Positions 1 to 16,134 are shown, counted from the stretch's first letter. The stretch: 16,134 nt of DNA from an uncultured Deinococcales bacterium (GCA_964247135.1 CAXTTL010000106.1:1-16134), one strand, 5' to 3'. Made by a program: numbers and translations. The notes: generated by a model not told the origin, from the letters alone.

Positions 1-216
1 GCCCGGTTCCCGCTGCGGAAAACTGAGGACTTCGGTGGTCGCGTCCTCGCCCCAAAGCTCGAGTTTTAACGCCCGCAATTTTTCGTCGTCCGCCAAAATC
101 AGACAGACATCGCTCTGCACATTGTGGTCTCGCATCAAACGGTTCATGACCGCCCGCAATTTTGGACGCAAGCCTAATTTAACACGTGTTTCGGCGACAA
201 TCTCGAGTGCTGGCAT
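1..216 (-). CDS. ybeY: rRNA maturation endoribonuclease YbeY, 5' part (runs off the window start)
   Basis: Not in the ORF track. Manual translation from ATG 216: MPALEIVAETRVKLGLRPKLRAVMNRLMRDHNVQSDVCLILADDEKLRALKLELWGEDATTEVLSFPQREPG. The 'TEVLSFP' segment matches the YbeY T(D/E)VLSFP motif. An alternative in-frame ATG lies at 258. Confidence 0.88.
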   Translation of the reverse strand, partial: MPALEIVAETRVKLGLRPKLRAVMNRLMRDHNVQSDVCLILADDEKLRALKLELWGEDATTEVLSFPQREPG

Positions 217-223
217 CTTTAGG

Positions 224-232
224 AGCTTAGCA
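224..232 (-). promoter_or_regulatory. extended -10 element (TG-C-TAAGCT) for leaderless ybeY
   Basis: Minus strand reads TGC TAAGCT CCTAAAG ATG, 7 nt from the box to the start codon, with no SD. Confidence 0.55.
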
Positions 233-400
233 GTTGGGGCGGTTTTGGTGCGGGTCATTTTGTCCGATCTTGCGGTTTGAAGCTCATGCAGTCTTATTCA
301 TGGAATCTCGAGGAACCTTCATCAACAAGCCCGCAGCAAGGATTCTGAGTGGCGTCTCAGTCTGAATAAGTTAAACTCGAGCGAGTTGAAGGAGCAAGAC

Positions 401-2182
401 GTGTTAAAAACAAATTTACAAAAAATTCTGGGTTTACTGTTGACCATCTCAATCATCCCTGCGGTGCTGCTGGCATGGCAACGCGTTCAATTTGAAACCA
501 AATACCAAACCGTCGGCGTGGTCATGGATTACATCGACGCGGTCAAACAGGCTCGAGAGAACGGAATGCGCGAAGAGGATTTGTTCGCCCACTACAAAAG
601 TCTTGGCGTGAACGGCTTTGCAATTTACGAAGACGCGCTGGTCAAGCTGGTGCAACAAGACAAGGTCGTCTACCGCGACGGCTCGGCTTGGCGCAACGAA
701 CGCCTCAGCATTGGCAAAAGCGTGACCGGCATCGAATCCAGAAAGTATTACCTGCGTTCACTCGTGCCAGGCGTGGTCGGCACATTCATCAAAAAGTACA
801 AGTACCGTTACGAACCCGTCAAAATTGACGGCGTCCAGTGGTTGTCGCTGCCCATCGACATTGGCGGTTTGGCGGCAGGTCCAGACAATGCCCTGATTGC
901 CAACCTCGAGAAGCAAGGGTTTTTTGTGGTTTACCGCCCTTACGAGGAGTCCAGCCTGATCGATCCAGCTTCGGACTTTCCAAATGTGAAATACATTGTC
1001 TACGCCGGCGATCAGGTCACGGGCAATTCCGAGGTGCAAAAGCTCGAGAAAGTGATTGAGCGCACCAAAACCAAAATTACCGGCGTGATCGAAAGCGTTG
1101 ACCAAGCCGGCATGATTGACATTGCCAAAGTCAACCCTGTGGTGCGGGTCTTTGCGATTCCGGCGGCGTGGCAGGCGGTCTTGCAACCCGAAGAGATTGC
1201 CAGCAAGTTCGTGCTTGCCGCCCGCGAACGCAACCACCGTCTGCTGTACGTTCGCCCGTACCAGCGCATCGATGATACCGACACGTTTTTGACCAAAATT
1301 CGTGAAGGCTTGGACAAAGCCAAATTCACCATCGGGCAACCCGAGGCGCTCGAGTTCAGTCAAAATCAAACCTTGCGTCAATTGTCAATTATCGGTCCAA
1401 TCCTGGGTTTGATCTTGCTGGCAACCGTCATGCCTTGGACATTGTTGAGCCTTTTGCTGGTGGTTGGAATGCTCGGACTGGTCTTTGTCTTTGGCGATCA
1501 CGCTTACGGCAGCCTCGCGCTTCTGGCGGCTTGCGTTTTTCCGGCGCTGGGGTTTTCCCTCTCGAGGGACAGCGCCCTGGACTGGTTTAAAGCCACACTG
1601 ATTACCTTGATGGGCGCATTGTTCGTCAGTGCCATCGGCGTTGACCGCAACCAGGTGCTGGCACTCGAGCCGTTTAAAGGCGTGGCACTGACCTTGGTCG
1701 TGCCGCCAGCTTTGTTGGCGCTCGCCATGCTACCGAGGCGCGACATTCGTCAAACCATTCGCGGTTTGTGGGGCATTCAACTCAACCTCGGCACACTGGT
1801 TTTAATTGGCATTGGCATTGCCGCCGTGGCACTGGTTGTCCTGCGGCGCGGCAACACCACCAGCGGCGCGAGCATCTCGCCCACCGAAGCCAAAGTTCGC
1901 GCCGCCCTGCAAGACAGCCTGATTCGACCGCGCACCAAAGAAATTTTGTTGCATCCTGCCGCACTGCTCGGACTCTCGAGCGGCTGGCCACTTTGGTTTT
2001 CCAACATTCTGCTGCTGGCAGGCGTGATCGGACAGGGCAGCATCGTGGACAGTTTCGCGCACTATCACACGCCACTCTTGATTACGCTTTTGCGCACCGT
2101 CAACGGACTGGGTTTCGGTTTGGCGATCAGCATTGTGACCGTGCTGGTGGTGCAATTCGCCAAACGATACTTTGAAGATTGA
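401..2182 (+). CDS. DUF5693-family membrane protein
   Basis: N-terminal TM segment, large soluble domain, then a multi-TM C-terminus with '[11 protein letters not shown]' and '[15 protein letters not shown]'. SD AAGGAG (389-394) favours GTG 401 over TTG 386. Confidence 0.8.
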
Positions 2183-2194
2183 CCCTCGAGCCAA

Positions 2195-2226
2195 GGCGCA
2201 TAACCATGCGCCCCTACATTTTTTTT
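2195..2226 (+). terminator. possible intrinsic terminator after the DUF5693 gene
   Basis: Stem GGCGCAT-AACC-ATGCGCC followed by an 8-T run, which is offset from the stem by 6 nt. Confidence 0.4.
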
Positions 2227-2247
2227 ATTTGGCATTTTTGGAGCGAC

Positions 2248-2871
2248 ATGACTTTAGAACGCCACAACCGCATTCGAGCCGTGCTCGACAAGCGTCAACC
2301 CGATTTGACCGTGCTGCTCGAGCAAGTCCACAAACCCCACAACCTCTCCGCCATCTTGCGCTCTTGCGACGCGGTGGGCGTGCTCGAGGCGCATTGTGTG
2401 GCGCTTGAGGGACGACCCGCAACGTTTAGCGACACCAGCGCCAGTGCCGAAAAATGGGTTCCGCTCGTGACCCACGCCACCACCAAAGACGCCTTCTCGA
2501 GCCTCAAAGCCAAAGGTTTTCAGGTTTATGCCACGCACCTGTCCGAACGCGCCGTGGATTACCGCGAGGTCGATTACACCCGCCCGACCTGCATTTTGTT
2601 GGGCGCGGAAAAATGGGGCGTCAGCGATGAAGCCGCCAATGCCGCCGATGCCAACATTGTTGTTCCGATGAACGGCATGGTGCAAAGCCTGAACGTTTCC
2701 GTGGCTGCCGCCGTGATTTTGTTTGAAGCGCAACGCCAACGGCAAAAAGCAGGATTTTACGACAATGTGCGCCTTAAGCCAGATCAATACCAGACCCTCG
2801 AGTACGAGTGGTTGTACCCTCGAGAAGCCGAGATTTTGCGAGAACGCGGTGAAGCCTACCCAAACTTATAA
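2248..2871 (+). CDS. trmH: tRNA (guanosine(18)-2'-O)-methyltransferase, SpoU/SPOUT family
   Basis: '[29 protein letters not shown]', 'LGAEKWGVS' and '[14 protein letters not shown]' motifs. SD GGAG precedes ATG 2248. Confidence 0.93.
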
Positions 2872-3153
2872 ACCAAGCTCGAGTCGCAATTTCACGGTGT
2901 CGCCCTCTTCAAGGTTTTCGGCTTTTCGGGCACTGGCTCGGATTGGCACAATGTACGAATCGTCTTTGGGAAACAACGAGGTTTTCCACTCGGTTTCACC
3001 GATGTACGCACGCACGGGAATCATGCCCCAGCCATACGTCACGAGCTTCGATGCGGCTTTTAACTCACGGCATTGTTTGGCTGGCACGGTCACAAAGTAC
3101 CACGGGGCTGGACCTCTCCAGAACCAGATTGCGCCACTAAACTCGAGATTCAT
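2866..3153 (-). CDS. DUF1905 domain-containing protein (95 aa)
   Basis: [24 protein letters not shown]...[31 protein letters not shown]... The start at ATG 3153 is supported by a -10 box 6 nt upstream. Confidence 0.85.
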
Positions 3154-3159
3154 GCGACC

Positions 3160-3165
3160 ATTATA
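3160..3165 (-). promoter_or_regulatory. -10 box TATAAT, leaderless start of the DUF1905 gene
   Basis: Minus strand TATAAT-GGTCGC-ATG. Confidence 0.7.
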
Positions 3166-3184
3166 TCCAACCTCGAGGGTCACA

Positions 3185-3610
3185 TTAGCTTGAGGACAGC
3201 TCTTGTTTTGCCCAGCGTTCCTGCACGGCATTTGCCAGCCACGCGCTGACATCTTGGGTGTTCGCGCCAGGCGTGAAAATGCCGTTGACACCAATTGCCT
3301 CGAGTTTGGGAATGTCCTCATCGGGAATAATGCCTCCGCCAAACAACAAAATATCGTTGGCGTTGCGTTCCTTGAGCAGTGCTCGAACTTCGACAAAATA
3401 GTGCATGTGCGCCCCAGAAAGCACGCTCAAGCCGATGGCGTCCACGTCTTCTTGCACGGCGGCGTTGACGATCATCTCGGCGGTTTGACGCAAACCCGTG
3501 TAAATCACTTCCATGCCCGCGTCACGAAGCGCTCGAGCAATGACTTTTGCACCGCGATCATGACCGTCTAAACCTGGTTTGGCAATTAAAACCCGTGCTT
3601 TTCGTTCCAT
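3185..3610 (-). CDS. cobalamin-binding domain protein (methylmalonyl-CoA mutase C-terminal/small subunit type)
   Basis: '[30 protein letters not shown]' (DxHxxG B12 motif), 'GLSVLSGAH' and 'GGGIIP'. Confidence 0.92.
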
Positions 3611-3616
3611 AAAAGT

Positions 3617-3622
3617 ATTCTA
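3617..3622 (-). promoter_or_regulatory. -10 box TAGAAT, leaderless start of the B12-binding gene
   Basis: Minus strand TAGAAT-ACTTTT-ATG. Confidence 0.65.
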
Positions 3623-3630
3623 GCCGATTT

Positions 3631-4143
3631 TTAAGCGCGTTCGGATTTCTGGCGACCTCGAGCGCCCAAATCCACGACCTCAGCGCCAAAAATCTTTTTA
3701 TGCTCGAGGTTGAAGCGCACCAGGGTTCGTTTTGGGTGCGTGCCGTGATGCCCACACGCGCCAGGGTTCATGTACAAAATCCCTTGCGCGTCGCGTTCGA
3801 TGCGCAAAATGTGCGAGTGACCGCAAACCAGAATGTCGGGTTTTTCGGCGGCAATGCTGGCTCGAGCGATGGGGTCATAACGTCCTGGCGTGCCGACAAT
3901 ATGCCGAATCAAAACCTTAAAACCTTCACGGTTTAACACTTGTTCTTCTGGAATGCTCGAGAATGTCGCGTGAGAGTCAATATTGCCGATTACGGCAACC
4001 ACGGGCGCAACGGTTTGGAGCGTTGAAATGATCTCGAGCGAACCCAAATCGCCCGCGTGCCAGATTTCGTCCACGCCCGCCAATGCCTCGAGAATGTCCG
4101 CGCCCATAAAACCGTGGGTGTCTGAAAGTAAACCAATTCGCAC
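3631..4143 (-). CDS. metallophosphoesterase, YfcE/MJ0936 family
   Basis: Calcineurin-like motifs SDTHG, HAGD, GNID, GHSH and NPG. GTG start. Confidence 0.9.
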   Translation of the reverse strand: MRIGLLSDTHGFMGADILEALAGVDEIWHAGDLGSLEIISTLQTVAPVVAVIGNIDSHATFSSIPEEQVLNREGFKVLIRHIVGTPGRYDPIARASIAAEKPDILVCGHSHILRIERDAQGILYMNPGACGHHGTHPKRTLVRFNLEHKKIFGAEVVDLGARGRQKSERA

Positions 4144-4149
4144 CAGTAA

Positions 4150-4155
4150 ATTCTA
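4150..4155 (-). promoter_or_regulatory. -10 box TAGAAT, leaderless start of the metallophosphoesterase gene
   Basis: Minus strand TAGAAT-TTACTG-GTG. Confidence 0.65.
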
Positions 4156-4277
4156 CCCCGAGATTCGCACGGTTCTCGCACCTCGAGACTAAACTTCATC
4201 ACTTTTCTGGAACGCTTTGCTCTAGCACCGCGTATTGTCATGCAAAGGGTTCATTCAAAACCCTATGGAGGCTGGAA

Positions 4278-5222
4278 ATGGGATTCGGAATTTTATTGAT
4301 GATTGCAGGCGTGGCGGCACTGATCGCCGCCAGTGTCAACAAACAAATGGCAAACTTACGCGGTTTGGGCGTGGCGGGTTTGGGTGTGGGCGTTCTGATT
4401 TTTATTGCGGCTGAAGCATTTGTCAGCGTTCCAGTCGGCAGCGTCGCCATTGTTGTCAACCGCTTGACAGGTTTAAAACCAGGGGCGCTCGAGCCAGGGG
4501 CGCACATTGTGCTGCCAGGCATCGAAACCCCGTTTTATTACAACACCCGTTTGCAAGAACTGACCCTCTCGAGGCGCGGTGAAGGTGGTCCAGACGTTGA
4601 CGAAAGCATCAAGGCGCTCTCAAAAGAGGGACTCGAGATTTCGGCGGACGTGACGGTGCAATTTCAGATTATTCCCAGCAAAGCGCCCGATCTTCACCAA
4701 CAAATCGGCACGGATTACATCAACGTGGTGATTCGTCCGCAGGTGCGCAGCAAAGTCCGTGACAGCATCGGTCAGTTCAATGCCACGGACCTGATCAGCA
4801 CCAAACGCAAAGCCCTCGAGAACAATGTGATTGCCGCCTTGGAAGGTGTTTTCAAAGATGCGAACCTCGAGTTGAAAGCCGTCTTGTTGCGCGAGTTGCG
4901 AATTCCTGACAGTGTGGCAAAAGCCATCGAGGAAAAACAAACCGCCGAGCAACGCGTGCAAACCGAAAAGAACAACCGCGATGCCGAACGGATTCGGGCA
5001 GATACGGTCTTTATCACGGCACAGGGCGCCGCCAAAGCCGCAGTCGCCAAAGCCAAAGGTGAGGCACAGGCTTTGAGCTTGCGTGGTGCGGCGCTCAAAA
5101 ACAACCCCCAATTGATTCAACTGACCGTTGCCGAAAAACTCGCGCCGACCGTGCAAACCATCATGATGCCGTCAACGGGCAATTTCTTGCTGAACTTGGA
5201 TTCGTTGACCAAAGCGAAGTAG
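4278..5222 (+). CDS. SPFH/prohibitin (band 7) membrane protein
   Basis: Two N-terminal TM helices, 'SKEGLEISADVTVQF', 'IRPQVRSKVRD', and an Ala-rich coiled coil 'AIEEKQTAEQ...AKGEAQA'. SD GGAGG. Confidence 0.9.
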   Translation: MGFGILLMIAGVAALIAASVNKQMANLRGLGVAGLGVGVLIFIAAEAFVSVPVGSVAIVVNRLTGLKPGALEPGAHIVLPGIETPFYYNTRLQELTLSRRGEGGPDVDESIKALSKEGLEISADVTVQFQIIPSKAPDLHQQIGTDYINVVIRPQVRSKVRDSIGQFNATDLISTKRKALENNVIAALEGVFKDANLELKAVLLRELRIPDSVAKAIEEKQTAEQRVQTEKNNRDAERIRADTVFITAQGAAKAAVAKAKGEAQALSLRGAALKNNPQLIQLTVAEKLAPTVQTIMMPSTGNFLLNLDSLTKAK

Positions 5223-5241
5223 GCGTTGGCAAATAGCCTTG

Positions 5242-5278
5242 AAGCTCGAGTTTCTGAATCTGGAGGCTCGAGCTTTTT
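5242..5278 (+). terminator. intrinsic terminator built from two CTCGAG copies
   Basis: AAGCTCGAG (5242-5250) pairs with CTCGAGCTT (5267-5275), extended by G-U pairs and ending in a T-run, about 20 nt after the SPFH stop. Confidence 0.75.
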
Positions 5279-5332
5279 GTCGATCAGAATCCCTTTTAAA
5301 GCTGACTTTGATATTTTGAAAATGAACCTAAG

Positions 5333-5426
5333 CTCCCCTCTCTCCGAGGAGAGAAGCGCCCAAGCCCGTCAGCGACCATGCCCGTGAGGTACGTTTTATG
5401 GTCAAGAAGGTCGGGGATGAGAGGGA
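5333..5426. repeat. REP-like nested palindromic intergenic element
   Basis: Hairpin TCTCTC-CGAG-GAGAGA (5339-5354), stem GACCAT (5374-5379)/ATGGTC (5398-5403), and outer CCCTCTC/GAGAGGG complementarity. Single copy in the window. Confidence 0.4.
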
Positions 5427-5428
5427 AC

Positions 5429-6424
5429 TCACCTCGATTTTTCAAAGTTCCGCTTGGGTTGCCACAACGGCGTGTTTAAAAGCGTCATCAAACTCGAGCT
5501 GCCCGAGTTTTGGGTTTGTTGGTATTCGCTCAAGGTCAGGTGATCTTCGGGCAGGGTTTTGCTGAGGCTCATGCCGTACTCGAGCGGGTACGCGCCCATG
5601 CCGTAGGCGCTGGGTCCGGTTTGGGTGGCGACGGCGGCGCCGATGTTGTACTCGCGCAACGTGCCGACGTTGAGCCGACTTTTTTTGATGGCGCGTTCCA
5701 TCTGCTCCAGGCTGCCGTCATCGCTGACGCTGGCGATGATCACGCTGACTGGCGCGTCGCCAAAGTGTCGCTCGAGGTCATGAACCATGCTGATCAAGGC
5801 GGTGTCTTCAAAGGCGCGTCCGGTTGGAACGACCCTGCCGTCTTGAAACGAAAGGATTGGACGGATGTTGAGCCAGTCGCTCAGCCAAGTGCCGCTGCCG
5901 GCGGCGAGTTTGGAATTTTTGAGGTAATGCAGGTCGCGCACGGTCATGCGTGAAACCATCGAGTCGCGCATGGCACTCAGGGCGGTGGTCAGGTCGAGCA
6001 TCGTGCCGCCCCAGGAGTTGATTTGTGTGGCGTACAAGACCAGTTCGCCCAGGAACGCCGTGCCGACCCTCGAGTCGAGGATTTGAATGCGGTCCTCGGC
6101 ATCCAGATTTTCGATGGCTTCTCTGGCGTGACAAATGGTGCTCGAGAAGTCGCTGGAGACGTGCAAACTGAGGATTGAATCAAATTCTTTGAGGCTCTCG
6201 CGGTAGACTTTTTCAAAGGCTTCGACGGTTGGCGCTTCGGTGGTCGGTAGGGGCGCGTCTGGGTGTTCCTCGAGAAACTCGAAGACTTCATCGGCGGTGA
6301 CTTCAAAGCCGTCTTGCAAAGGTTGCCCACCGAGGATGACGGTCATTGGAATGGCGACTGCGCCCAAGCGTGCAAGGTGGTCGCTCGAGAGTTCGCAGTT
6401 TGAATCTGTGACTATTCCGATCAC
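5429..6424 (-). CDS. DegV/FakB-family protein, divergent, with C-terminal extension
   Basis: 'IGIVTDSNCEL', 'LPTTEAP', 'SLHVSSDFSST', 'ILDSR' and 'LNIRPILSFQDG'. GTG start with SD AAGGA. Confidence 0.85.
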   Translation of the reverse strand: MIGIVTDSNCELSSDHLARLGAVAIPMTVILGGQPLQDGFEVTADEVFEFLEEHPDAPLPTTEAPTVEAFEKVYRESLKEFDSILSLHVSSDFSSTICHAREAIENLDAEDRIQILDSRVGTAFLGELVLYATQINSWGGTMLDLTTALSAMRDSMVSRMTVRDLHYLKNSKLAAGSGTWLSDWLNIRPILSFQDGRVVPTGRAFEDTALISMVHDLERHFGDAPVSVIIASVSDDGSLEQMERAIKKSRLNVGTLREYNIGAAVATQTGPSAYGMGAYPLEYGMSLSKTLPEDHLTLSEYQQTQNSGSSSLMTLLNTPLWQPKRNFEKSR

Positions 6425-6470
6425 GAGGCTGTCCTTGGTAGGCTGCGATTTGGCGCTTGTTGGTTGGGCT

Positions 6471-6516
6471 GGTGATAAGGTACTGGGTTGATAATGTACT
6501 GGGTGACAAAATTCTG
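6471..6516. repeat. three imperfect tandem 15-16 nt direct repeats
   Basis: GGTGATAAGGTACTG / GGTTGATAATGTACTG / GGTGACAAAATTCTG. Confidence 0.6.
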
Positions 6517-6766
6517 AACGTTTGTCCTTGGTTCAAGTTAACGTTCATTCTTAAGAACTCGGCGCGTTTTTGATGAGGACAAAAACCCTTCAAAATATTC
6601 AAGCCGACGCAAGTGCGTGACCGACGCTCGAGGCGTGTCATTTGGATAACGTGGGCTTCTCAGGCGAGCGGGCTAGGATTGACTGGTTTCTGGAGGTCTT
6701 CATGAATTTTCTTTGCAGCCAAGCAGGTTTGATGTGTAAAACAGGCTCGAGCATTGGGGCACGACC

Positions 6767-7991: not shown

Positions 7992-7997
7992 CGAGTC

Positions 7998-9143: not shown

Positions 9144-9204
9144 GCTCGGGTTTTCGCTATACTGCACGCATTGGGACGTTCTTTCAGCGTCCAACGGGAG
9201 AAAC

Positions 9205-9891
9205 ATGTATTACAACTCGAGCTACATCCTTTTGATGGTCTTTATCCTGGCAATTTCGTATGGGGCGCAGTGGTATCTCTCGAGCACCTTTGGACGGTTC
9301 AGCAAGCTGCGCAACGCCCGCAATTTGACTGGCGCTGAGGTGGCGCGTGACATTCTGGACTCAAACGGTTTGCAGGACGTTCAAGTCGAACCTATTGCCG
9401 GTCAATTGACCGACCATTACGACCCCAGAACCCGCACCGTGCGCCTGTCCGAACCCAATTACGCCTCGCCGAGCTTGGCGGCTTTGGCGGTCGCCGCCCA
9501 CGAATGCGGTCATGCGCTGCAACACAAGCAAGGTTATGCCCTGTTAAACTTGCGTGCCGCGATTATTCCGGTGGTCAACATCGGTTCGCAGTTTGGACCG
9601 CTGCTGATTATGTTGGGTTTGTTTATTCGCATTCCAACCATCGCCTGGATTGGCGTGCTGGGTTTGGTCGGTACATTGGTCTTTCATGCCGTGACCCTGC
9701 CCGTCGAATTTGACGCCAGCGCCAGAGCCATCAAGATTCTCGAGGGCAACGGTTACCTGACCCGCGAAGAGAACGCTGGCGCAAAAAGTGTGCTGACCGC
9801 CGCCGCCATGACCTACGTGGCTGGCGCCATCGGGGCGCTCATGACCTTGCTCTATTACGTCAGCATCCTTTCGGGTGGTCGCCGCAGGTAA
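9205..9891 (+). CDS. membrane zinc metallopeptidase (YugP-like, Zn_peptidase_2)
   Basis: 'GQLTDHYDP', HEXXH motif 'AHECGHALQH', 'TLPVEFDASARA' and 'AAAMTYVA'. SD GGGAG precedes ATG 9205. Confidence 0.9.
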   Translation: MYYNSSYILLMVFILAISYGAQWYLSSTFGRFSKLRNARNLTGAEVARDILDSNGLQDVQVEPIAGQLTDHYDPRTRTVRLSEPNYASPSLAALAVAAHECGHALQHKQGYALLNLRAAIIPVVNIGSQFGPLLIMLGLFIRIPTIAWIGVLGLVGTLVFHAVTLPVEFDASARAIKILEGNGYLTREENAGAKSVLTAAAMTYVAGAIGALMTLLYYVSILSGGRRR

Positions 9892-9897
9892 AAACGT

Positions 9898-9905
9898 TAT
9901 ACTCT
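9898..9905 (+). promoter_or_regulatory. -10 box (TATACT or TACTCT), leaderless start of the hypothetical gene
   Basis: TATACTCT-CTGGGC-ATG. TACTCT lies 6 nt from the ATG, no SD. Confidence 0.55.
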
Positions 9906-9911
9906 CTGGGC

Positions 9912-10367
9912 ATGAAAACCCTTCAAAACCAAATCACTGGCAGCCTGGGCACAAACCCCAGCATCGAACTCAGAGCACGCCTCGAGCAAGACCGCATCCT
10001 CGGTCGTGTCGGCGGTGCGTTGATGGCAAAAGAACTCAACCTCGAGGTTTCTGAAAAAGGCGTTTCTGGGCATGTCGGCGGTAAAAACGGTTTTGAAGTC
10101 AACCTCGAGTTAAAAGCGGGCGAACTGACCGGTTTTGTTGGACTCGAAGCCCTTCATTTGCGCGGCGTCGATCAGGTCACTGGTCGTCTGGGCAGCGCCA
10201 TGAACGGCGTGGATTTTATTTCCAACCAAAACGGCGATAGCTTGCGCGGGCGGCTCGGCGGCATCAAAGGGCAGACTTTTGAACTCGAGCTTTCAGGTAC
10301 GCCAGGTTGGATCGGCACGCTGGTGGCGATCATTGCGTTTTACGCGATTGAAAAGCACAAAAATTAA
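9912..10367 (+). CDS. hypothetical protein with six Gly-rich repeats and a C-terminal hydrophobic helix
   Basis: Host-like codon usage with CTCGAG in the Leu-Glu frame. Repeats are ITGSLG, ILGRVGG, VSGHVGG, LTGFVG, VTGRLG and LRGRLGG. Confidence 0.8.
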   Translation: MKTLQNQITGSLGTNPSIELRARLEQDRILGRVGGALMAKELNLEVSEKGVSGHVGGKNGFEVNLELKAGELTGFVGLEALHLRGVDQVTGRLGSAMNGVDFISNQNGDSLRGRLGGIKGQTFELELSGTPGWIGTLVAIIAFYAIEKHKN

Positions 10368-10408
10368 ATCAACAGCTTGGCTTTAGCTTTAAATGCTATT
10401 TATGGTTC

Positions 10409-10921
10409 ATGACTTTAAACGAACAGATCGACCAAAATATTGAAGCCGTCCGTGAACTCGAGCGTCGGGTGGATCGAGGACTTGACCCTGCCACATTGCG
10501 GTTTAATGGGTTGGCAACTCGAATTGGGCGACCCAATTTTTTGACTGCCGTGATCGCAGGAATCATCGTCTGGATTCTCATCAACTTGTTATCCGAAAAG
10601 GTCGGCGTGAAAGCTTTTGACCCATTTCCTTTTGTCATCCTTCAAGGATTGATTGGTTTAAGCGCCCTGATGACCAGTTTGATTGTGCTGATCGGACAAA
10701 ACCGTGAAGCGATTCTCGAGGGACAACGGGCGCATCTGGACTTGCAACTCAATTTGCTGGCAGAACAAAAAATCACCAAATTGATTGCGCTGCTCGAGGA
10801 ACTGCGACGTGATCTGCCAAATGTCAGCAACCGTCACGATCAGGTTGCCGAGAGAATGCAGGAATCTGCCAATCCTGAAGCGATACTTGGGGCAATGAGT
10901 GAAGAGTCGAGCAGTGCTTGA
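10409..10921 (+). CDS. DUF1003 domain membrane protein
   Basis: 'WILINL...FDPFPFVILQ...IVLIGQNR...DLQLNLLAEQKITKLI', with two TM segments. Confidence 0.88.
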   Translation: MTLNEQIDQNIEAVRELERRVDRGLDPATLRFNGLATRIGRPNFLTAVIAGIIVWILINLLSEKVGVKAFDPFPFVILQGLIGLSALMTSLIVLIGQNREAILEGQRAHLDLQLNLLAEQKITKLIALLEELRRDLPNVSNRHDQVAERMQESANPEAILGAMSEESSSA

Positions 10922-11175
10922 TCCATTTAAACCAACAAGGCTCGAGTTACAACTGCATGTCTACAGGTTCACTCTCGAGCGCTAAAACTCCAAACACGGC
11001 TTCGTGGGTTCGGCGCAGGGTCAAAACCGTACAAACTACTTGAGCACTTCAAGATCCAAGATGAATTCAAGTAAAACAAGTCTCCCGAACCAATGCTAAT
11101 AAACCTATTTTATGACTTCAAGATAGAACACAAAGACAAGCAAAACTTTCTTAAGGGATTTCCAAAAGTGAATTA

Positions 11176-11964
11176 TCAATCAACGAAGATACGAAGCTTT
11201 CGTCTACACTGAGTCGAATCAAGATAATTCATGATTTCACTTGAAAAGGAATCTAAGTCAGCGTAAAGAATTCGTCGAGAAAAACCATATTTGGGTAAGA
11301 TTTTCTGTAGTTCTTTTTTGAAATTTGCGGTTACTCTGAATTTAACTATATCTTCTTCATCAGTATTGAATTCTTTCCAAGGTTCAGGATGGATGGAAAA
11401 AAGTGCGGCTTGAGCAACCATTCTTTGTTCTAAATGTGGTGCAAAAAATAAACCATTGCAGTTATTATCAAAAGGTGATGTATCAGCATTAGCAGTGTAA
11501 ACTTTTGAATCTGGGTGCATAAAGTAAATTACGCCATCTTCATTAATATCTTTTGGTTTTCCATCAGAATCAACAATATGAATTGAAGCAAAATAAAGTG
11601 CTACTAAGGGATTTTCAGTCCAATCAAGAAATCGTGTTGCCATTCCATAATGTTGGGCTAGGGTAAGCCAATGCCAGTCATTATGTGAAGTATATGGCTC
11701 ATGAATAAAAACTTTAGATTTAAATATTTCTAGCAAAATTTTTTCGTCTTGATAGAATTGTATTTTTTCTTCTTCATTTGTAGGGATTTTAAGCTTACGT
11801 GCGATACGTGGTTTTAAATCAAAATTATAATTTTGTGCACCCCTAAAAACATAATGAGGACAAGTCTTATCCCGAATTATTTCATTAAAATAATTAAAAC
11901 TATTAAAAACAAATTCTTCTCCTTGTTTTCCATCTTTGTTTCGGTGTGTGACTACTTTCCCCAT
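11176..11964 (-). CDS. FRG domain-containing protein (AT-rich, probably horizontally acquired)
   Basis: 'YVFRGAQN', 'LAQHYGMATRFLDWTENPLVALYFA' and 'RMVAQAALF'. Sampled 60-nt lines are about 20-32% GC, and there is no CTCGAG. Confidence 0.92.
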   Translation of the reverse strand: MGKVVTHRNKDGKQGEEFVFNSFNYFNEIIRDKTCPHYVFRGAQNYNFDLKPRIARKLKIPTNEEEKIQFYQDEKILLEIFKSKVFIHEPYTSHNDWHWLTLAQHYGMATRFLDWTENPLVALYFASIHIVDSDGKPKDINEDGVIYFMHPDSKVYTANADTSPFDNNCNGLFFAPHLEQRMVAQAALFSIHPEPWKEFNTDEEDIVKFRVTANFKKELQKILPKYGFSRRILYADLDSFSSEIMNYLDSTQCRRKLRIFVD

Positions 11965-11973
11965 CCTAAATCC

Positions 11974-12106
11974 CCCTAACTGTATATGACCATCGCGCAG
12001 GTATATGAGGGCTTTTCAGTGACCCACATTAAATTTAGAAAACGTTCCACTAAATTTTAGCATCTCCGATTAGAGTTTTGCGAAATGATGGTCATTGACG
12101 TTAAGT
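11974..12106 (-). mobile_element. integron attC-like recombination site upstream of the FRG gene
   Basis: Minus strand: R'' ACTTAAC, 5 nt, TGACCATC ... central IR AAATTTAG/CTAAATTT ... GATGGTCA, 6 nt, R' GTTAGGG. Length 133 bp. No extrahelical base in the L box, and R' ends in G rather than Y. Confidence 0.5.
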
Positions 12107-12151
12107 CTACACAATCAAGCAAACCCAAGTTGAAATACGTTCTATTGCTAC

Positions 12152-12185
12152 AAAAAAATATCTCGAGCCTTGACGACTCGAGATA
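12152..12185 (-). terminator. intrinsic terminator of the pullulanase gene built from two CTCGAG copies
   Basis: Minus strand TATCTCGAGTC-GTCAA-GGCTCGAGATA-TTTTTTT, 16 nt after the stop codon. Confidence 0.85.
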
Positions 12186-12201
12186 CCTCTAACAATTCAA
12201 T

Positions 12202-15200
12202 TTACTTTTGAACCAGCACGTAACCCGAGAGCGGCTCGAGTTTTAAATTCCCTGACACTGTTCCGAGCGCGGTCAATCCTGCTTTTGTACCGTCGGCGTG
12301 CAGCGTCCAAGTGCCTGCTGGCAGTTGCATGTTGTCCGTGCTCGTGCTGCCGTGAAACACCACCAAAATCTTTTTTGCAGCCTCGAGCGTGAACCCAATC
12401 GTGGCGACGGGCAGGCTCGAGTCAGGCAAGAATTTCAAGGTTTTGCGCACCGCGTCCGCGCTCGAGAGTCTGAACGCTGGGAAGGCTTTGCGAATGGCGA
12501 TCAAGCCTTTCATGTAATTGAACGCGCCGTTAAACTTTGCAGCCCGGGTCCAATCGAATTTGTTGACCACATCGCCAGCGTTGTAGCTGTTGCCGTTGCC
12601 GCCTTTGGTGCGCCCAATTTCGACGCCGCCCTCGAGGAACGGCACGCCCTGCGCCAGCAAGACCATCGCGGCGGCAAGGTTGGCGGATTTCGCCCGCAGG
12701 TCCGCGTTCGGCATGACCTTCTCGAGTTTGTCCCAGAGTGCCAGGTTGTCGTGCGCCGAGACGTAATTGATGCTCTCAACGGGTTGGTCGGCAAAATCTG
12801 AGATGCTCGGGTCGTAATTGATTGAGCCAACGATGCCACGTTTCAGGCTGGTGCTCGAGGTGATCGCGCCATTGATAAATCCTGGTTTGCTGCCGTCCAG
12901 GTCGCCGCGCAGGGCGTTGCGGTAATTGTCGTTGAAGACCGCGAAATTCATGCCACGCTGTGAACCCTTGCCGAAACGCAGCGGTCCGCCGCCCGTCCAG
13001 GGTTCGCCGTACAAGACCACATCGGCGCGTAATTTGTGCAACTCGAGCGTCAGGTTTTCGACGGTGGATTTGCTGAACATGCCGATCAGATCGAATCTGA
13101 AACCGTCGATGCCGTACTCGAGCATCCAGTATTTGAGGCTGTCGCGGATGTACTTGCGAACCATTGGGCGTTCGTCGTGCAGGGCATTGCCGACACCGGA
13201 TTCGTTTAAGACCTGTCCCTCGTCGTTGGTGCGGAAGTAATAATAAGGCACGGTCTGCCAGAAGGCGCTGTCCTCGCCACGGGCGGGAACGCTGTGGTTG
13301 TACACCACATCCAAGACCGCTCGTAAGCCAGCCTTGTGCAGCGCGGCGATCATGGTTTTGACCTCGAGTATCGCCACGGCGGGTTGATTTGGGTTGGTGC
13401 TGTACTGTCCCTCGGGCACGTTGAAGAGGTTGGTTTCGTAACCCCAGTTGTAAACGCCGTTGTTGGCAGGATTGATCTTTTGAAATGGCAATATATGAAC
13501 ATCGGTCACACCAAGGTCGCGCAGGTAATCAAGCCCAGTTTTCTGGCTCGAGTTTGGCACGGTGGTTCCCGTTTGTGCCACACCCAAGTATTTGCCGCGC
13601 AGGGCGGGTTTGACGCCGCTCGAGGGGTCAACCGTGAAGTCGCGGATGTGCATTTCGTAGAGCACCGATTCGGTCATTGGGCGGCTCGAACTTTTGGGAC
13701 GCGTGAAGTTGGCGGGGTTGGTTTTGCTCAAATCGACCACCATGCTGCGTTTGCCATCCAGGCTGGCGGCGTAACAGTTGATGTCGGCGGTGACCCGAGT
13801 TTCGTTGTATGACTTGAAGCGGTATTGGTAATAATGCCCGTTCAAATCGCCGTTGACATTGGCGCTCCAAACGCCGTGCTGGTCGCGTTTCATGTCGATG
13901 ATCTGATCGGGTCCGCTGGTCGCGTCGTCAAAAATAAACAGTTCGGCGCTCGAGCTGACCGGACTCCAGACTTTAAAGCTGGTGGCGGTTTTACTGTAAC
14001 GACTGCCGAGGTCCTCGCCAGAATATTGGTATTGCTTGTCATCGAGCGCTTCACGCACATAGACCGTGCGGGCGAAGTCGTCGCCAATTTTGAGTTCGAT
14101 AAATTTGCCCAGATCATCAATGCCCAGCGGTTTCTCGAGCTTGATGGCGAGCACTTGGACTGGACCCGTGGGCGCGGCGGCGACAGGTTTTTCTCGGGGC
14201 GGAACGGTGCTTGGCGCTTGAACTTCTTTGGGGTTGTTGATGCTGTCGCGCACGGTTTTTTTGTTGAAATCCACAACAAACTTAACGATGGTGCCGTCTT
14301 TGGGGATACTGAGCGCAATGTTGCTGCCGCCAGGGGCGAAATCTGCGCCGTAATTTTCGGTCCAAGTGCCACCTTTGGCGACCTTGTACTCGAAATCACC
14401 TTTGGGGAACGCCGCAACAAACTCAAACACGCCGCTCGAGATTTCACCCATGCGGGTGATGTCGCCGTTCGGATTCCAGTCGGTGCCGCCGAGCGCGGCT
14501 TGAATTGTGCCTGGCAACACGACCTTGGTGGGATCAACCGAATCGGTACTGACCGCCACAGGAGCGCCCCCAGCCTCGAGTTTGGCAATCTTCAAAGGTT
14601 TGCCGCCCAGGGTAAGGTTAATTTTTCCCTCGAGCGATTTGAGGTCGCTGGCTTTGGGCAGCCATGCCCGAATCGTGTCGCTGCTGTCCAAAAAGGCGGG
14701 TTCGCCGCGCGGTGGGGCGGCTTTGGCTTGGTAGGCATCGGCGGCGGCGCGTGAAACTTCAAATTCTTTGCGCCCTTGGAAGACCCAGATTTCGGCGATG
14801 CCCGAGGCACCCACGGTCACAAACCGGTCCGAGTCGCCGTCTTTGGCTTCCCAGTTGCCTCGGCGCAAGATAAAACCGAGTTCGCTGTGTTTGCCTGGAA
14901 TGTCGATGGTGGCGGTCTTGCCAAAATCGTCACCGCCGTCAAAATTGTAGGCTTTGCCGTCGGTGGCTTTGGGTTTTGATCCCCATACCCAAACGTTCCA
15001 AGTCTCAAAATCGGCTCGAGGGCGTCTGTAATGGAGCACCAAGCGCGTGCTGCCTTCGGGGGCAACTTCGGCTGCCACAACGGGTGCGGCTCGAGTTGGT
15101 ACGGTTTCGGGGGCGCTGACTAGGTCTGGGTTATTCACACTGTCCACAATCGTTTTCTTGGTATATTCAAACACAAATTTGACAATTTGTTTGTCGGCTG

Positions 15201-15510
15201 TGACCACAAGTGAAATGTTCGCGCCGCCCTTCTCGCCTTTTTTGCCGTAATTTTCGTCCCAGGTGCCGTTGATGGCGACTTTGTACTCGTAATTGCCCTT
15301 GGGAAACGCGGCGACAAATTCGTAATGGTCGGGGGTGGTCTCCTCCATTTTGGTGACATCACTTGCTGGGTCCCAGGCTTTCGCGCCGAGGGCTTCTTGG
15401 ATCGAGCCTGGTAAACGCACCACACGACTTGATTGCGCCTGAATCAGATTGGGGCGAATTGAGAGCAGGGCGAGAAAGACCAAGCTGAATGCCAGCAAAA
15501 AACGCTTCAT
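12202..15510 (-). CDS. pulA: secreted type I pullulanase (signal peptide, X25-like, CBM41, X45/X25-like, CBM48, GH13 catalytic domain)
   Basis: Signal peptide ending near IQA. CBM41-like 'HYRRP..WNVWVW..DDFG', 'YNWGYE', and GH13 regions DVVYNH, GFRFDLIG, YGEPW and SAHDN. SD AGGAGG. Confidence 0.92.
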   Translation of the reverse strand: MKRFLLAFSLVFLALLSIRPNLIQAQSSRVVRLPGSIQEALGAKAWDPASDVTKMEETTPDHYEFVAAFPKGNYEYKVAINGTWDENYGKKGEKGGANISLVVTADKQIVKFVFEYTKKTIVDSVNNPDLVSAPETVPTRAAPVVAAEVAPEGSTRLVLHYRRPRADFETWNVWVWGSKPKATDGKAYNFDGGDDFGKTATIDIPGKHSELGFILRRGNWEAKDGDSDRFVTVGASGIAEIWVFQGRKEFEVSRAAADAYQAKAAPPRGEPAFLDSSDTIRAWLPKASDLKSLEGKINLTLGGKPLKIAKLEAGGAPVAVSTDSVDPTKVVLPGTIQAALGGTDWNPNGDITRMGEISSGVFEFVAAFPKGDFEYKVAKGGTWTENYGADFAPGGSNIALSIPKDGTIVKFVVDFNKKTVRDSINNPKEVQAPSTVPPREKPVAAAPTGPVQVLAIKLEKPLGIDDLGKFIELKIGDDFARTVYVREALDDKQYQYSGEDLGSRYSKTATSFKVWSPVSSSAELFIFDDATSGPDQIIDMKRDQHGVWSANVNGDLNGHYYQYRFKSYNETRVTADINCYAASLDGKRSMVVDLSKTNPANFTRPKSSSRPMTESVLYEMHIRDFTVDPSSGVKPALRGKYLGVAQTGTTVPNSSQKTGLDYLRDLGVTDVHILPFQKINPANNGVYNWGYETNLFNVPEGQYSTNPNQPAVAILEVKTMIAALHKAGLRAVLDVVYNHSVPARGEDSAFWQTVPYYYFRTNDEGQVLNESGVGNALHDERPMVRKYIRDSLKYWMLEYGIDGFRFDLIGMFSKSTVENLTLELHKLRADVVLYGEPWTGGGPLRFGKGSQRGMNFAVFNDNYRNALRGDLDGSKPGFINGAITSSTSLKRGIVGSINYDPSISDFADQPVESINYVSAHDNLALWDKLEKVMPNADLRAKSANLAAAMVLLAQGVPFLEGGVEIGRTKGGNGNSYNAGDVVNKFDWTRAAKFNGAFNYMKGLIAIRKAFPAFRLSSADAVRKTLKFLPDSSLPVATIGFTLEAAKKILVVFHGSTSTDNMQLPAGTWTLHADGTKAGLTALGTVSGNLKLEPLSGYVLVQK

Positions 15511-15532
15511 AAAACCTCCTCGAGATTAAACC

Positions 15533-15546
15533 TGGAATCGCTTCCA
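15533..15546. promoter_or_regulatory. LacI/GalR-family operator upstream of the pullulanase gene
   Basis: TGGAATCGCTTCCA is a 14-bp palindrome with a central CG and one mismatched pair. Confidence 0.65.
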
Positions 15547-15568
15547 ATGAATTGGGGCTGCACCAAAA

Positions 15569-15574
15569 AGTGTA
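15569..15574 (-). promoter_or_regulatory. probable -10 box (TACACT) of the pullulanase promoter
   Basis: TANNNT match 22 nt upstream of the operator on the minus strand. No clear -35. Confidence 0.45.
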
Positions 15575-15634
15575 CCTGATTCTCGAGAAAAGTGTTCGGG
15601 TCTTGGCTGACAAATTCGAGGTACGCACCAACGA

Positions 15635-16049
15635 TCAATGGTCATGATCATCCTCGAGCAAGACCTGATTGCACAATTTCAGCGCCTCGAGGTTGCGTTC
15701 GATGCTGCCGCAACCGCCCTCACCGCTGGGGCGCACGTGCGGCGCGGCGCGTTCCTCGAGTCCCTTCCACTGGTAGGGGTCATGACCTGTGACCATCACG
15801 ATGTTGCGGCAATCGGCGGCGGCAAAATGTTGCTGCTGTTCTGCGCCAAACCAGGGCAGCAACGATTCGGCGCTCATGTAGTGGTTGACCAAAGACCGCC
15901 TGAAACCGTTCGGCGCGTAATTGGGCAGGCTGTGTGGTGCAGCAAATAACCGTTAAAGAACGCGATGCTGCCGCGCTTGACTTCGACTGGAACGGCATCA
16001 TCGTCCAAGTACGGGAAGAACGTCGCCTCGCCCGCACCATCAAACCTCG
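15635..16049 (-). pseudogene. phytanoyl-CoA dioxygenase (PhyH)-family gene, 3' part only, frameshifted
   Basis: SRFDGAGEATFFPYLDDDAVPVEVKRGSIAFFNGYLLHH, then a frame change at about 15932-15933, then SLPNYAPNGFRRSLVNHYMSAESLLPW...DHDH*. The distal His and Arg pattern of Fe(II)/2OG enzymes is present, but the N-terminal HxD part is absent. Confidence 0.75.
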
Positions 16050-16134
16050 AGCATCGCCGAGGGCATGGCGGGGCTGGAGGAGGAACGCCGTCTGTTTTAC
16101 GTGGCGATCACCCGCGCGATGGAACGCCTGACCA
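16047..16134 (+). other. uvrD: UvrD/PcrA helicase internal fragment (motif VI), runs off the window end
   Basis: SSIAEGMAGLEEERRLFYVAITRAMERLT matches SF1A helicase motif VI. No upstream helicase sequence lies 5' of the CTCGAG. Confidence 0.8.

Follow-up and report, generated by a model that had tools for sequence, protein, structure and literature searches.

The function of HIP1 (GCGATCGC), the hyper-abundant palindrome of cyanobacteria, has been open for three decades, and it has been studied only in these organisms. Among other iterated words, uptake sequences accumulate by molecular drive, a process that predicts a fixation bias on the whole motif, and some Chi words are both short and dense, the 5-mer of Bacillus subtilis being one. 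For HIP1 itself, 10.1101/2024.09.10.611283 and PMC13756078 describe a methylation-dependent increase in natural transformation and propose uptake-like or Chi-like roles, and PMC4390886 reports that a cognate methyltransferase accompanies high motif frequency for HIP1 and the alternate HIPs. Here, we describe CTCGAG as a second, phylogenetically independent case, starting from a window of 16,134 bp (the whole stretch of DNA analyzed) and extending to its source genome, an assembly of 5.09 Mb in 386 contigs (84% complete) from an uncultured Deinococcales family.

The window holds exactly 101 copies of CTCGAG between positions 58 and 16051 (the first at 58-63, the last at 16046-16051; mean spacing ~160 bp), and the uniform expectation is 16134/4096 = 3.9, in agreement with the roughly 101 and 4 given in the initial annotation. 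Dinucleotide-preserving shuffles (n = 200) yielded a mean of 2.99 copies (sd 1.87) and a maximum of 9, with 101 reached in 0/200. The annotation had also held that the word occurs mostly as Leu-Glu, but in other frames and between genes as well, and this was borne out: 53 sites in open reading frames read CTC-GAG, while frames 1 and 2 hold 7 and 22 sites, the latter as xxC-TCG-AGx (Ser-Ser/Arg), in a tally that counts one overlap region twice, and 20 sites fall outside open reading frames, within 2,232 bp. The pullulanase gene (12202..15510, minus strand), a typical host gene, carries 19 sites (10, 2 and 7 in frames 0, 1 and 2), and the intergenic spacer at 5223..5428, with sites at 5245 and 5267, illustrates the non-coding enrichment. 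The expectation that host-like genes carry the motif held for 15/16 open reading frames, the exception being an FRG-domain gene (11176..11964, minus strand, 33% GC). This gene sits inside a nearly motif-free island (10922..12201, 35% GC), which has four sites at its edges (10941, 10974, 12162 and 12177) and none in 10980-12161. The island is missing from 5/5 congeners, whose matches end at ~10919 and restart at ~12149-12200, and it provides a negative control within the window, where recently acquired DNA is seen to lack the motif. In these genomes, native DNA can be told sharply from recent acquisitions by how densely it carries the word. The window yielded no tRNA or Rfam matches and, as annotated, none of its genes is a plausible reader of the word.

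Across the source genome, CTCGAG is the most frequent of all hexamers, with 33,925 copies against 1,371 expected, an observed/expected ratio (O/E) of 24.75 that rises to 35 against a dinucleotide model. It was found on 386/386 contigs at 2.6-11.3 per kb, or about one copy per 150 bp, an abundance that will bias k-mer-based binning, codon-usage analysis and XhoI cloning in this lineage. Called genes carry 6.63 copies per kb and the remaining DNA 6.77; accessory genes also hold the word, at 3.8-7.6 per kb. The enrichment is highest in short spacers (n = 1,690; 9.5 per kb, O/E 47), where convergent spacers reach 11.7 per kb versus 7.7 per kb in divergent ones.

Such an excess might be read as a by-product of codon or dipeptide usage, base composition, a dispersed repeat or an assembly artefact, and 63% of coding sites do lie in the Leu-Glu frame (16,815 / 3,832 / 6,080 by frame). 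Codon usage, moreover, raises NNC-GNN palindromes, CTCGAG included, in high-GC genomes such as phage G365. In a scan for viral triple sites, which returned at least 126 stretches, those listed were mostly high-GC phages in which GAGCTC is common too. Phages G365 and G367, which encode a terminase, a portal and a head protein, had CTCGAG:GAGCTC ratios of 100:1 and 40:0, and the source genome holds no homologues of their genes. Since G365 also over-uses CGATCG (6.7x), GTCGAC (3.9x), TCGCGA and GACGTC, with its CTCGAG sites mostly in frame 0, high-GC codon usage may be the source of its pattern, and the phage data are ambiguous. Against a by-product, the called genes of the source genome contain 26,727 sites, compared with 3,717 +/- 35 after within-gene synonymous-codon shuffling and 1,605 +/- 33 after codon-order shuffling; excesses of 7.2x and 16.7x thus remain, as the initial annotation anticipated in arguing that protein-level selection alone is insufficient. 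The intergenic O/E of 47 points the same way, and other NNC-GNN palindromes are depleted in this genome (GTCGAC 0.09, CGATCG 0.03). The flanks (-10..-2 and +2..+10) are near background, and at the adjoining positions G (-1) and C (+1) alone reach 0.39, so that the unit is the hexamer; no conserved sequence of the REP or MITE type was found in them beyond the core word. Their slight asymmetry follows local G/C skew (e.g., 1,595 vs 1,335), and no hidden oriented extension was detected, which excludes a longer or oriented motif. Together with sites shared by independent assemblies and genomes, described below, these counts refute the by-product reading, which we regard as having almost no chance of being correct. 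The excess was neither lost on codon shuffling nor confined to one contig, and the results support a genome-wide and lineage-wide force on the DNA word, not on protein, in line with the core proposal of the annotation.

Individual sites are strongly conserved in position. Of 407 site comparisons with five congeners, 333 showed conservation (range across genomes 76-93%), where an arbitrary hexamer reaches 44-48%, and 54% of motif columns were fully conserved versus 19% of all columns. Synonymous third positions were identical at 542/582 and 562/600 (93%) inside the motif, and at 396/675 and 439/654 (59-69%) for the same codons outside it. Losses among congeners hit all six motif positions, and orthologous CTCGAG positions recur across six independently assembled genomes. 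The alignments leave out loci L150, L152 and L154, and the stretch C1:1-20000 of the source genome, with no congener match at E<=1e-50, adds nothing to them.

This conservation would fit a role in chromosome structure, in which an abundant nucleoid or condensation protein binds CTCGAG and each site is under purifying selection. For HIP1, a chromosomal or nucleoid function was advocated by Xu et al. (PMC5861425). The spacing of CTCGAG is, however, close to geometric (CV 0.96, short-range analysis of 386 contigs), with no short-range phasing beyond codon periodicity in the source genome. The ~34,000 sites are of the order of the copy number of abundant nucleoid proteins, but we know of no nucleoid protein that imposes an exact hexamer. 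No candidate protein was found, and such binding leaves the linked purge of other palindromes unexplained; we consider a structural role improbable. A 6-bp gap between sites was never seen, as it would create GAGCTC.

The word has also left an imprint on proteins. Leu-Glu has an O/E of 2.37 in the source genome, the highest of all dipeptides, and Glu-Leu one of 1.01. In the codon-pair comparison suggested at the outset, CTC-GAG spells 78% of Leu-Glu pairs, even though Leu is written CTC in 15% of cases and Glu is written GAG in 33% when they stand outside this context. When aligned with a motif-poor relative, 72% of motif-encoded Leu-Glu pairs stand opposite a different dipeptide. CTCGAG has inflated Leu-Glu ~2.4-fold, and proteins are altered to accommodate it. 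Alignments in the window illustrate gains of both kinds. The site at 552..557 (plus strand, frame 1) is a protein-neutral gain that takes three synonymous changes, reading GCT-CGA-GAG in the window and G004, GCC-CGT-GAA in G003, GCC-AGG-GAA in G005 and GCC-CGC-GAA in G002. The site at 12854..12859 (minus strand), within the pullulanase gene, is a protein-changing gain: where the window and G001 read CTC-GAG (Leu-Glu), two congeners have CAG-CAC (Gln-His) and another two AAG-CAC (Lys-His). A DNA-level force can thus overwrite amino-acid sequence proteome-wide, alongside an extreme purge of restriction-type palindromes.

Deinococcota, the phylum singled out in the annotation, proved to be the right one, and mapping across it placed the trait in 19/19 genomes of the family to which the source genome belongs and in two genomes from another family. 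The latter, G156 and G157, belong to one genus whose third member, G158, lacks the trait. In G157, CTCGAG has an O/E of 28 (frames 267/64/90), Leu-Glu stands at 2.40 and 81% of these pairs are written CTC-GAG; the corresponding values in G158 are 1.0, 1.29 and 7%. Palindromic hexamers below 0.1x number 28/64 in the source genome and 27/64 in G157, compared with 3/64 in G158, and GAGCTC, with 0 copies, is among those purged. The purge accompanies the CTCGAG trait in both lineages. Cross-lineage correlations of this kind rest on very few independent contrasts. The on/off contrast within one genus suits a comparative-genomic search for the genes responsible.

Elhai's model for HIP would explain the word by an orphan CTCGAG methyltransferase that marks it and a methylation-dependent mismatch repair that creates and preserves it. 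Methylation of CTCGAG is known from other taxa (PMC8112702; 10.64898/2026.06.24.734251), the second source, a hot-spring epigenome preprint, describing a CTCGAG-methylated group without a named taxon in its text. At least 12 candidate DNA methyltransferases are encoded in the source genome. Individual profiling covered six small enzymes, as distinct from four large ones and the imported C189 enzyme. Close orthologues of each small enzyme occur in just 2-6/18 other family genomes, so that none of the six is conserved in the family and the restriction-modification repertoire is diverse and mobile. No family-conserved methyltransferase emerged from the six protein profiles, an Eco57I-family panel or the clustering of 23 open reading frames, so the orphan enzyme sought on the suggestion of the initial annotation was not found among those profiled. 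Matches of the Eco57I/TaqI-like type were heterogeneous, their recurrent ~500 aa class being type I HsdM in at least 5 clusters. Each m5C methyltransferase has orthologues in 3/18 family genomes, and neither query matched G008 (91% complete) or G015 (82%) at E<=1e-10. A cognate enzyme may be missed because the source assembly is 84% complete and non-orthologous enzymes could share its specificity. A search for the XhoI-type endonuclease PF04555 in the source genome gave no match, as did the controls, and is uninformative.

The arithmetic of repair also weighs against Elhai's model. Vsr (PF03852) had no match in the source genome, at its 84% completeness, and the one-transition neighbors are not depleted there (CTTGAG/CTCAAG O/E 1.17, TTCGAG/CTCGAA 1.74). 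In a Markov model, a Vsr-type bias at a single position enriches the word 3.2x at most and drains the CTTGAG/CTCAAG neighbor, whereas a match at 24.9x requires a bias of ~25 over all 18 neighbors and leaves these near 1; the observed neighbors lie at 0.5-1.7, CTAGAG aside. Since single-base repair stops at 3.2x, only a bias on the entire hexamer can account for the excess, and gene search, neighbor counts and model together rule out Vsr-like single-position repair. In addition, one copy per 150 bp far exceeds the ~1 per kb predicted for repair signals in PMC4390886. We therefore think methyltransferase-coupled repair unlikely to maintain CTCGAG. Of the four mechanisms listed in the annotation, methylation-directed single-mismatch repair proved quantitatively too weak, a nucleoid protein could be involved, and uptake or recombination signals are the best candidates.

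On these counts, CTCGAG is a genuine, very highly iterated palindrome of the HIP type, and the force behind it acts at the DNA level and on the entire motif. Our preferred reading, which we advance tentatively and at somewhat less than even confidence, is that it is kept as a self tag by a bias coupled to exchange or recombination. Roughly one copy per 150 bp would be held by a fixation bias on the whole hexamer at the DNA level, with exact-word alleles replacing one-base-off alleles ~25 times more often than the reverse. We infer that this bias is linked to exchange or recombination, and it would most likely arise during DNA exchange and recombinational repair among relatives: DNA bearing CTCGAG, possibly in methylated form, as is now proposed for HIP1, may enter cells in preference to other DNA, or an AddAB-type end-processing nuclease may spare it and recombine it. 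Such preference would let the word spread by molecular drive as a self tag, and the same intense exchange, filtered by diverse and shifting restriction systems, could have purged most other palindromes. The Chi and uptake sequences described so far show asymmetry, greater length or far lower density, and CTCGAG is an orientation-free hexamer. With near-geometric spacing, nothing suggests a need for one site per fragment.

The machinery for either route appears to be present, although no gene that reads the word emerged from the searches. A ComEC domain was found in the source genome (E 4e-45), in 17/18 other family genomes and in 339/364 genomes of the phylum, including motif-poor G158 and a Deinococcus-like genus, and is too nearly universal to discriminate. 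To our knowledge, DNA uptake in Thermus has no sequence specificity. The stretch C24:24923-30555 of the source genome codes for two proteins, one AddA/RecB-like (953 aa; TIGR02785 at E 3e-51, under the equivalog cut-off) and one AddB-like (935 aa). The AddB-like gene occurs in 16/18 other family genomes, with no match in G012 (94% complete) or G018 (57%). All enriched lineages examined encode an AddA/AddB-like pair, which is absent from G158 and 111 Deinococcus-like genomes; AddB-like genes also turn up in motif-poor g22 (109-290 sites) and in Thermus-like genomes that show no specific enrichment, so that they look necessary but are not sufficient as a discriminator. The more specific proposal that CTCGAG is an orientation-free "recombination passport", read by the uptake machinery or the AddAB-like nuclease and driven through the genome and part of the proteome by very frequent DNA exchange, while a shifting pool of restriction systems purges ~28 other palindromes, is in our judgment rather doubtful. 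If true, no earlier Chi-like or uptake signal would have been a palindrome, and CTCGAG would offer an independent, denser counterpart of HIP1 in which HIP function can be tested.

Taken together, CTCGAG shares features with several known systems. As in the very-short-patch repair bias of Vsr and Dcm, a repair system acting on a methylated palindrome could shift word frequencies, but here no Vsr gene was found in the 84% complete assembly, no m5C methyltransferase is universal, T:G-derived neighbors are undepleted and the maximum would be ~3.2x. By analogy with Chi, which marks self DNA for the helicase-nucleases RecBCD or AddAB, it may be viewed as a short over-represented word in a genome encoding an AddA/AddB-like pair; Chi, however, is asymmetric and co-oriented with replication, and CTCGAG is a palindrome without oriented extension, with AddAB-like genes also in motif-poor lineages. 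We know of no Chi that matches its enrichment, which is far stronger. The uptake sequences of Neisseria (DUS) and the Pasteurellaceae (USS) offer a similar analogy, being self tags of naturally competent bacteria that are iterated in all frames with a peptide effect and some excess in convergent spacers, and ComEC is present here. These are 9-12 nt long, asymmetric and found at ~1 per kb, unlike this 6-nt palindrome at 1 per 150 bp, and ComEC does not track the CTCGAG trait. The closest relatives are HIP1 and the alternate HIPs, as the initial annotation proposed: each is a short palindrome, rich in G+C, that exceeds expectation by one to two orders of magnitude in genic and intergenic DNA of a restriction-modification-rich lineage and is, with PMC5861425 and PMC4390886 as the sources for HIPs, unexplained by codon usage and conserved at orthologous positions. 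The analogy holds for over-representation, for robustness to codon controls and for conservation of position; a conserved cognate methyltransferase, the property by which HIPs are most often defined, was sought and not found among the enzymes profiled. CTCGAG differs further in its phylum, in being a hexamer rather than an octamer, and in its strength, with ~1 copy per 150 bp (HIP1 occurs at ~1 per kb; PMC4390886), a 25-fold enrichment, a measurable imprint on the proteome (Leu-Glu 2.4x) and the near-total loss of ~28 other palindromic hexamers.

The window contains exactly 101 copies of CTCGAG, the first at 58-63 and the last at 16046-16051, compared with 3.0 ± 1.9 (maximum 9) in dinucleotide-preserving shuffles, none of which reached 101 in 200 trials. 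The initial annotation had described about 101 copies, lying in genes mostly as Leu-Glu but also in other frames and in intergenic DNA, with no evident reader gene, and all checkable points of this description proved correct. The motif is present in 15 of the 16 ORFs, where 53 sites are read as Leu-Glu, 7 fall in frame 1 and 22 in frame 2; 20 sites lie in the 2,232 bp outside ORFs, and the window holds neither a DNA methyltransferase nor a nuclease gene. The sole ORF without CTCGAG is an FRG-domain gene (11176-11964, minus strand, 33% G+C) inside a 1.3-kb island at 10922-12201 (35% G+C), which is missing in all five congeners (genomes of the same genus), is motif-free from 10980 to 12161 and looks like a recent insertion. 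The window contains no GAGCTC and a single GGCC. A short intergenic sequence at about 5320-5428 has dozens of matches (40-100 bp, 74-97% identity) in the genome of each of the five congeners and is a dispersed REP/MITE-like repeat of the genus. The last 89 bases (16046-16134), 91-98% identical in all five congeners, encode in frame on the plus strand ...EEERRLFYVAITRAMERL, which we take to be the conserved motif VI of UvrD/PcrA-type helicases, so that the contig presumably ends within such a helicase gene. Searches of the window against tRNA and Rfam families gave no match.

Across the genome assembly that contains the window as contig C106 (G000; 5.09 Mb in 386 contigs, 84% complete, 52.7% G+C), CTCGAG is the top-ranked hexamer by count, with 33,925 copies, 24.75 times the expectation from base composition and 35 times that from a dinucleotide model. 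The ratio falls to 1.24 under a fourth-order Markov model, since the motif also inflates the pentamers that overlap it. Sites occur on all 386 contigs, at 2.6-11.3 per kb, and the enrichment is thus not confined to one contig. Flanking bases are near background, save for a mild preference for G at -1 and C at +1 (0.39), which identifies the hexamer as the unit; the remaining TCGA contexts are ordinary or depleted, and no longer oriented word was seen within or around the motif in G000. The distribution of inter-site gaps is close to geometric (mean 148, median 108, expected median 103, CV 0.96), codon periodicity being its sole visible structure, and gaps of 6, which would generate GAGCTC, are never seen. 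Motif-free stretches of at least 1.2 kb number 47 and total 72.5 kb (1.4% of the genome; mean 43% G+C). The start of the largest contig (C1:1-20000 of 115.6 kb) carries CTCGAG at 4-7.5 per kb despite having no match in the five congeners at E<=1e-50, and is accessory DNA that is native in word usage.

By ORF-based gene calls (4,023 genes, 79% of the sequence), the motif has a density of 6.63 per kb inside genes and 6.77 per kb in the remaining sequence. The 1,690 spacers of 30-300 bp (196 kb, 46% G+C), which are conservative since longest-ORF starts were used, carry 9.5 sites per kb, 47 times expectation, with a higher density in convergent (11.7 per kb) than in divergent spacers (7.7 per kb). 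Within genes, the three frames hold 16,815, 3,832 and 6,080 sites, and the 26,727 observed compare with 3,717 ± 35 after within-gene synonymous-codon shuffling and 1,605 ± 33 after shuffling of codon order. Each shuffle is a conservative control, given that the motif has already inflated codon and dipeptide usage. Leu-Glu is the most over-represented dipeptide in G000 (O/E 2.37, against 1.01 for Glu-Leu), and Ser-Ser ranks third (1.62). CTC-GAG spells 78% of Leu-Glu pairs; outside this context Leu is encoded by CTC in 15% of cases and Glu by GAG in 33%. In 141 orthologue pairs between G000 and motif-poor G158 (53% amino-acid identity), Leu-Glu pairs encoded by the motif number 637, of which only 175 are also Leu-Glu in G158; the remainder are Leu-Asp, Ile-Glu, Leu-Gln, Val-Glu and many others. 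The earlier suspicion that protein-level selection alone does not explain the sites is borne out by their intergenic density, their spread over three frames and the persistence of the excess through codon- and dipeptide-preserving shuffles: the excess is not a protein-level effect. An origin as a by-product is excluded by the shuffle-resistant excess and the enrichment in short spacers.

We mapped the motif in 364 genomes of the phylum, the tallies including the unpublished genome G327, on which no claim here rests. The closest named relatives of G000 are MAGs labelled 'Deinococcales bacterium', and all 18 other genomes of its family (five genera, 57-94% complete) hold 12,028-35,442 copies of CTCGAG (4.3-7 per kb) and 3-568 of GAGCTC, the same half-sites in opposite order. 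Genus g7, which presumably corresponds to Deinococcus, comprises 111 genomes with 26-1,372 copies of CTCGAG each, and the Thermus-like genus g9 has about 2,000 of either word. Several other genera are intermediate, with 2-3.5 CTCGAG per kb and 5-100 times fewer GAGCTC, to which codon usage at their higher G+C may contribute. A genome of genus g19, G042, has 13,562 and 1,197 copies, respectively. Genus g23, in another family, is divided: G156 (58% complete) has 16,253 CTCGAG in 1.9 Mb and 2 GAGCTC, G157 has 24,536 in 3.5 Mb and 30, and G158 has 683 and 384. In 92 kb of G157 (the first 20 of about 640 contigs; 51% G+C), CTCGAG has an O/E of 28, with 6.9 sites per kb inside and 8.0 outside long ORFs, frames of 267/64/90, a Leu-Glu O/E of 2.40 and CTC-GAG spelling 81% of Leu-Glu, compared with 1.0, 1.29 and 7% for the motif, dipeptide and codon pair in 400 kb of G158 (50% G+C). 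The whole G000 pattern is therefore reproduced in G157. In 27 orthologue pairs, G157 shares 47 of the 127 in-frame sites of G000, which fits shared ancestry and parallel gain alike.

The abundance of CTCGAG is coupled to a purge of other palindromes. GAGCTC is absent from the 5.09 Mb of G000, in which GGGCCC occurs once, CGGCCG three times, AGGCCT four times, CGTACG five times and GGATCC seven times; among G+C-rich palindromes, CTCGAG alone shows the opposite trend. Palindromic hexamers below 0.1 times expectation number 28 of 64 in G000 and 27 of 64 in the G157 sample, against 3 of 64 in G158, and the G000 and G157 profiles are correlated (Spearman 0.63). The purge in both genomes goes far beyond usual restriction avoidance.

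Alignment with the five congeners, at about 86% nucleotide identity to G000, shows that individual sites are conserved in position. Aligned CTCGAG sites of the window are kept in 73/91, 73/93, 68/89, 51/55 and 68/79 cases, compared with identity of any hexamer at only 44-48% of positions. Four reference stretches were searched, one of which had no match in the congeners; in the other three (the window, C2:1-20000 and C3:1-20000; 56 kb in total), complete identity across all aligned genomes (at least four) holds for 54% of the 249 motif columns, against 19% of 32,607 columns overall. When the five pairwise comparisons, which are mutually non-independent, were pooled in a codon-aware test, the third base of CTC was unchanged in 542/582 cases inside CTC-GAG and 396/675 elsewhere, and that of GAG in 562/600 and 439/654; four-fold sites overall were unchanged in 69%. 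Polarised by parsimony on a star-like tree, a rough procedure under which an excess of losses over gains should not be over-read, single-lineage changes comprise 76 losses and 29 gains. Losses by one base (55) affect every position, mostly as C-to-T or G-to-A (22 at positions 1/6, 16 at 3/4, 7 at 2/5, and 10 transversions). Gains arose in 24 of 29 cases from words at least two changes away, in variable stretches. Examples of gains within the window are a triple synonymous change at 552 and a Gln-His to Leu-Glu replacement at 12854.

One-base neighbours of CTCGAG are not depleted (O/E 0.51 to 1.74), except CTAGAG, in which the generally avoided CTAG is embedded. In a mutation model of 4,096 states, boosting only the step from CTTGAG or CTCAAG to the motif, as Vsr-type repair at methylated cytosines would do, yields at most 3.2-fold enrichment and empties those neighbours; with a gain:loss bias of 25 on each of the 18 neighbours, enrichment reaches 24.9-fold while the neighbours stay near 1.0, which matches the data. 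Undepleted neighbours and model together argue for a force that recognises the whole hexamer and would act in the manner of selection or of biased conversion, at a scaled coefficient of roughly ln 25 (about 3.2). CTCGAG is best described as maintained by a whole-motif fixation bias.

The saturation of the single-step model also weighs against repair coupled to a methyltransferase, an explanation we consider unlikely. The suggested search for an orphan enzyme yielded about 12 DNA methyltransferase candidates in G000. All but one carry CTCGAG at 3.8-7.6 per kb, which marks them as long-resident in the gene pool; the exception, an N4/N6 methyltransferase gene at C189:4856-5632 (no CTCGAG, 40% G+C) inside a normal contig, is apparently a recent import. 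Six small methyltransferases profiled across 18 family and 22 other genomes have close orthologues (at least 50% identity over most of the length) in 2, 3, 3, 3, 4 and 6 of the 18 family genomes. Some orthologues have in-frame stops, as do those of the 466-aa C4 enzyme at G005:C76:182945-184300 (one TGA, one TAG) and G012:C72:42092-43402 (two TGA), which suggests decay of restriction-modification genes within the family. Two m5C methyltransferase queries found no match in the family genomes G008 (91% complete) and G015, and an Eco57I/TaqI-family search of 36 chosen genomes gave heterogeneous matches, among which a recurrent class of about 500 aa consists of type I HsdM subunits falling into five or more clusters (25-35% mutual identity). 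No family-conserved cognate enzyme was thus found among the six small enzymes profiled individually or in the Eco57I/TaqI-family search, the candidates also including four large enzymes and the C189 enzyme, and this failure is not proof of absence. A profile search of G000 (84% complete) did not find Vsr; a search for XhoI-family nucleases had no match there or in control genomes and is uninformative.

We tentatively favour a drive coupled to DNA exchange or recombination, in which CTCGAG would be read as a self tag by a hypothetical reader protein; a structural binding site appears distinctly improbable. ComEC is encoded in G000 and 339 of 364 phylum genomes, including motif-poor G158. An adjacent pair of genes for AddA/RecB-like (953 aa) and AddB-like (935 aa) proteins lies at C24:24923-30555 in G000, with 30 and 27 CTCGAG, respectively. 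The AddB-like protein is present in 16 of 18 family genomes and in 21/23, 64/68 and 113/128 genomes of three other families, but in only 6 of 125 of the Deinococcus-containing family: namely G042, G156 and G157, all motif-rich, and the three g22 genomes, which are motif-poor. G158 and all 111 g7 genomes gave no match to it. The gene occurs in every enriched lineage yet is not sufficient, with about two independent contrasts. The on/off contrast within g23, between G156/G157 and G158, is the obvious route to the reader protein.

We also scanned viral contigs for three CTCGAG within about 80 bp. Among the matches listed, most come from high-GC phages that also have many GAGCTC, and two are genuine phages with CTCGAG:GAGCTC of 100:1 and 40:0. 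The viral record G365 (L339 and L340, 36.9 kb) has terminase, portal and head genes, 100 CTCGAG and 84 copies of the HIP1 core CGATCG against 12.6 expected, and 11 of its 32 testable palindromes are present in one copy or none. Since this record, the first of the two phages, also over-uses CGATCG, GTCGAC, TCGCGA and GACGTC, with sites mostly in frame 0, we draw no conclusion from them.

Among iterated sequences, uptake sequences have been treated with molecular-drive models and affect the proteome, while Chi is over-represented, is enriched in some phages and is a 5-mer in Bacillus. To our knowledge, DNA uptake in Thermus is non-specific and Deinococcus lacks RecBCD. A literature search that excluded most subscription journals and preprint supplements turned up no account of hyper-abundant CTCGAG in any bacterium. 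Methylation of CTCGAG is described for a Halorubrum (PMC8112702) and for hot-spring genomes of unstated taxon (10.64898/2026.06.24.734251). The highly iterated palindrome HIP1 of cyanobacteria is treated in Elhai 2015 (PMC4390886) and Xu et al. 2018 (PMC5861425), and a methylation-dependent role in natural transformation, uptake-like or Chi-like, is proposed for it by Kamoku and Nielsen 2024 (10.1101/2024.09.10.611283) and Rodriguez-Cruz et al. 2026 (PMC13756078), the latter using PGLS to relate HIP1 density to gene families. Taken together, our results demonstrate that the hyper-abundance of CTCGAG is real and strong rather than artefactual. The motif is best seen as a new variant of the HIPs, from which it differs in being hexameric, much denser and found in Deinococcota, coupled to an extreme palindrome purge.
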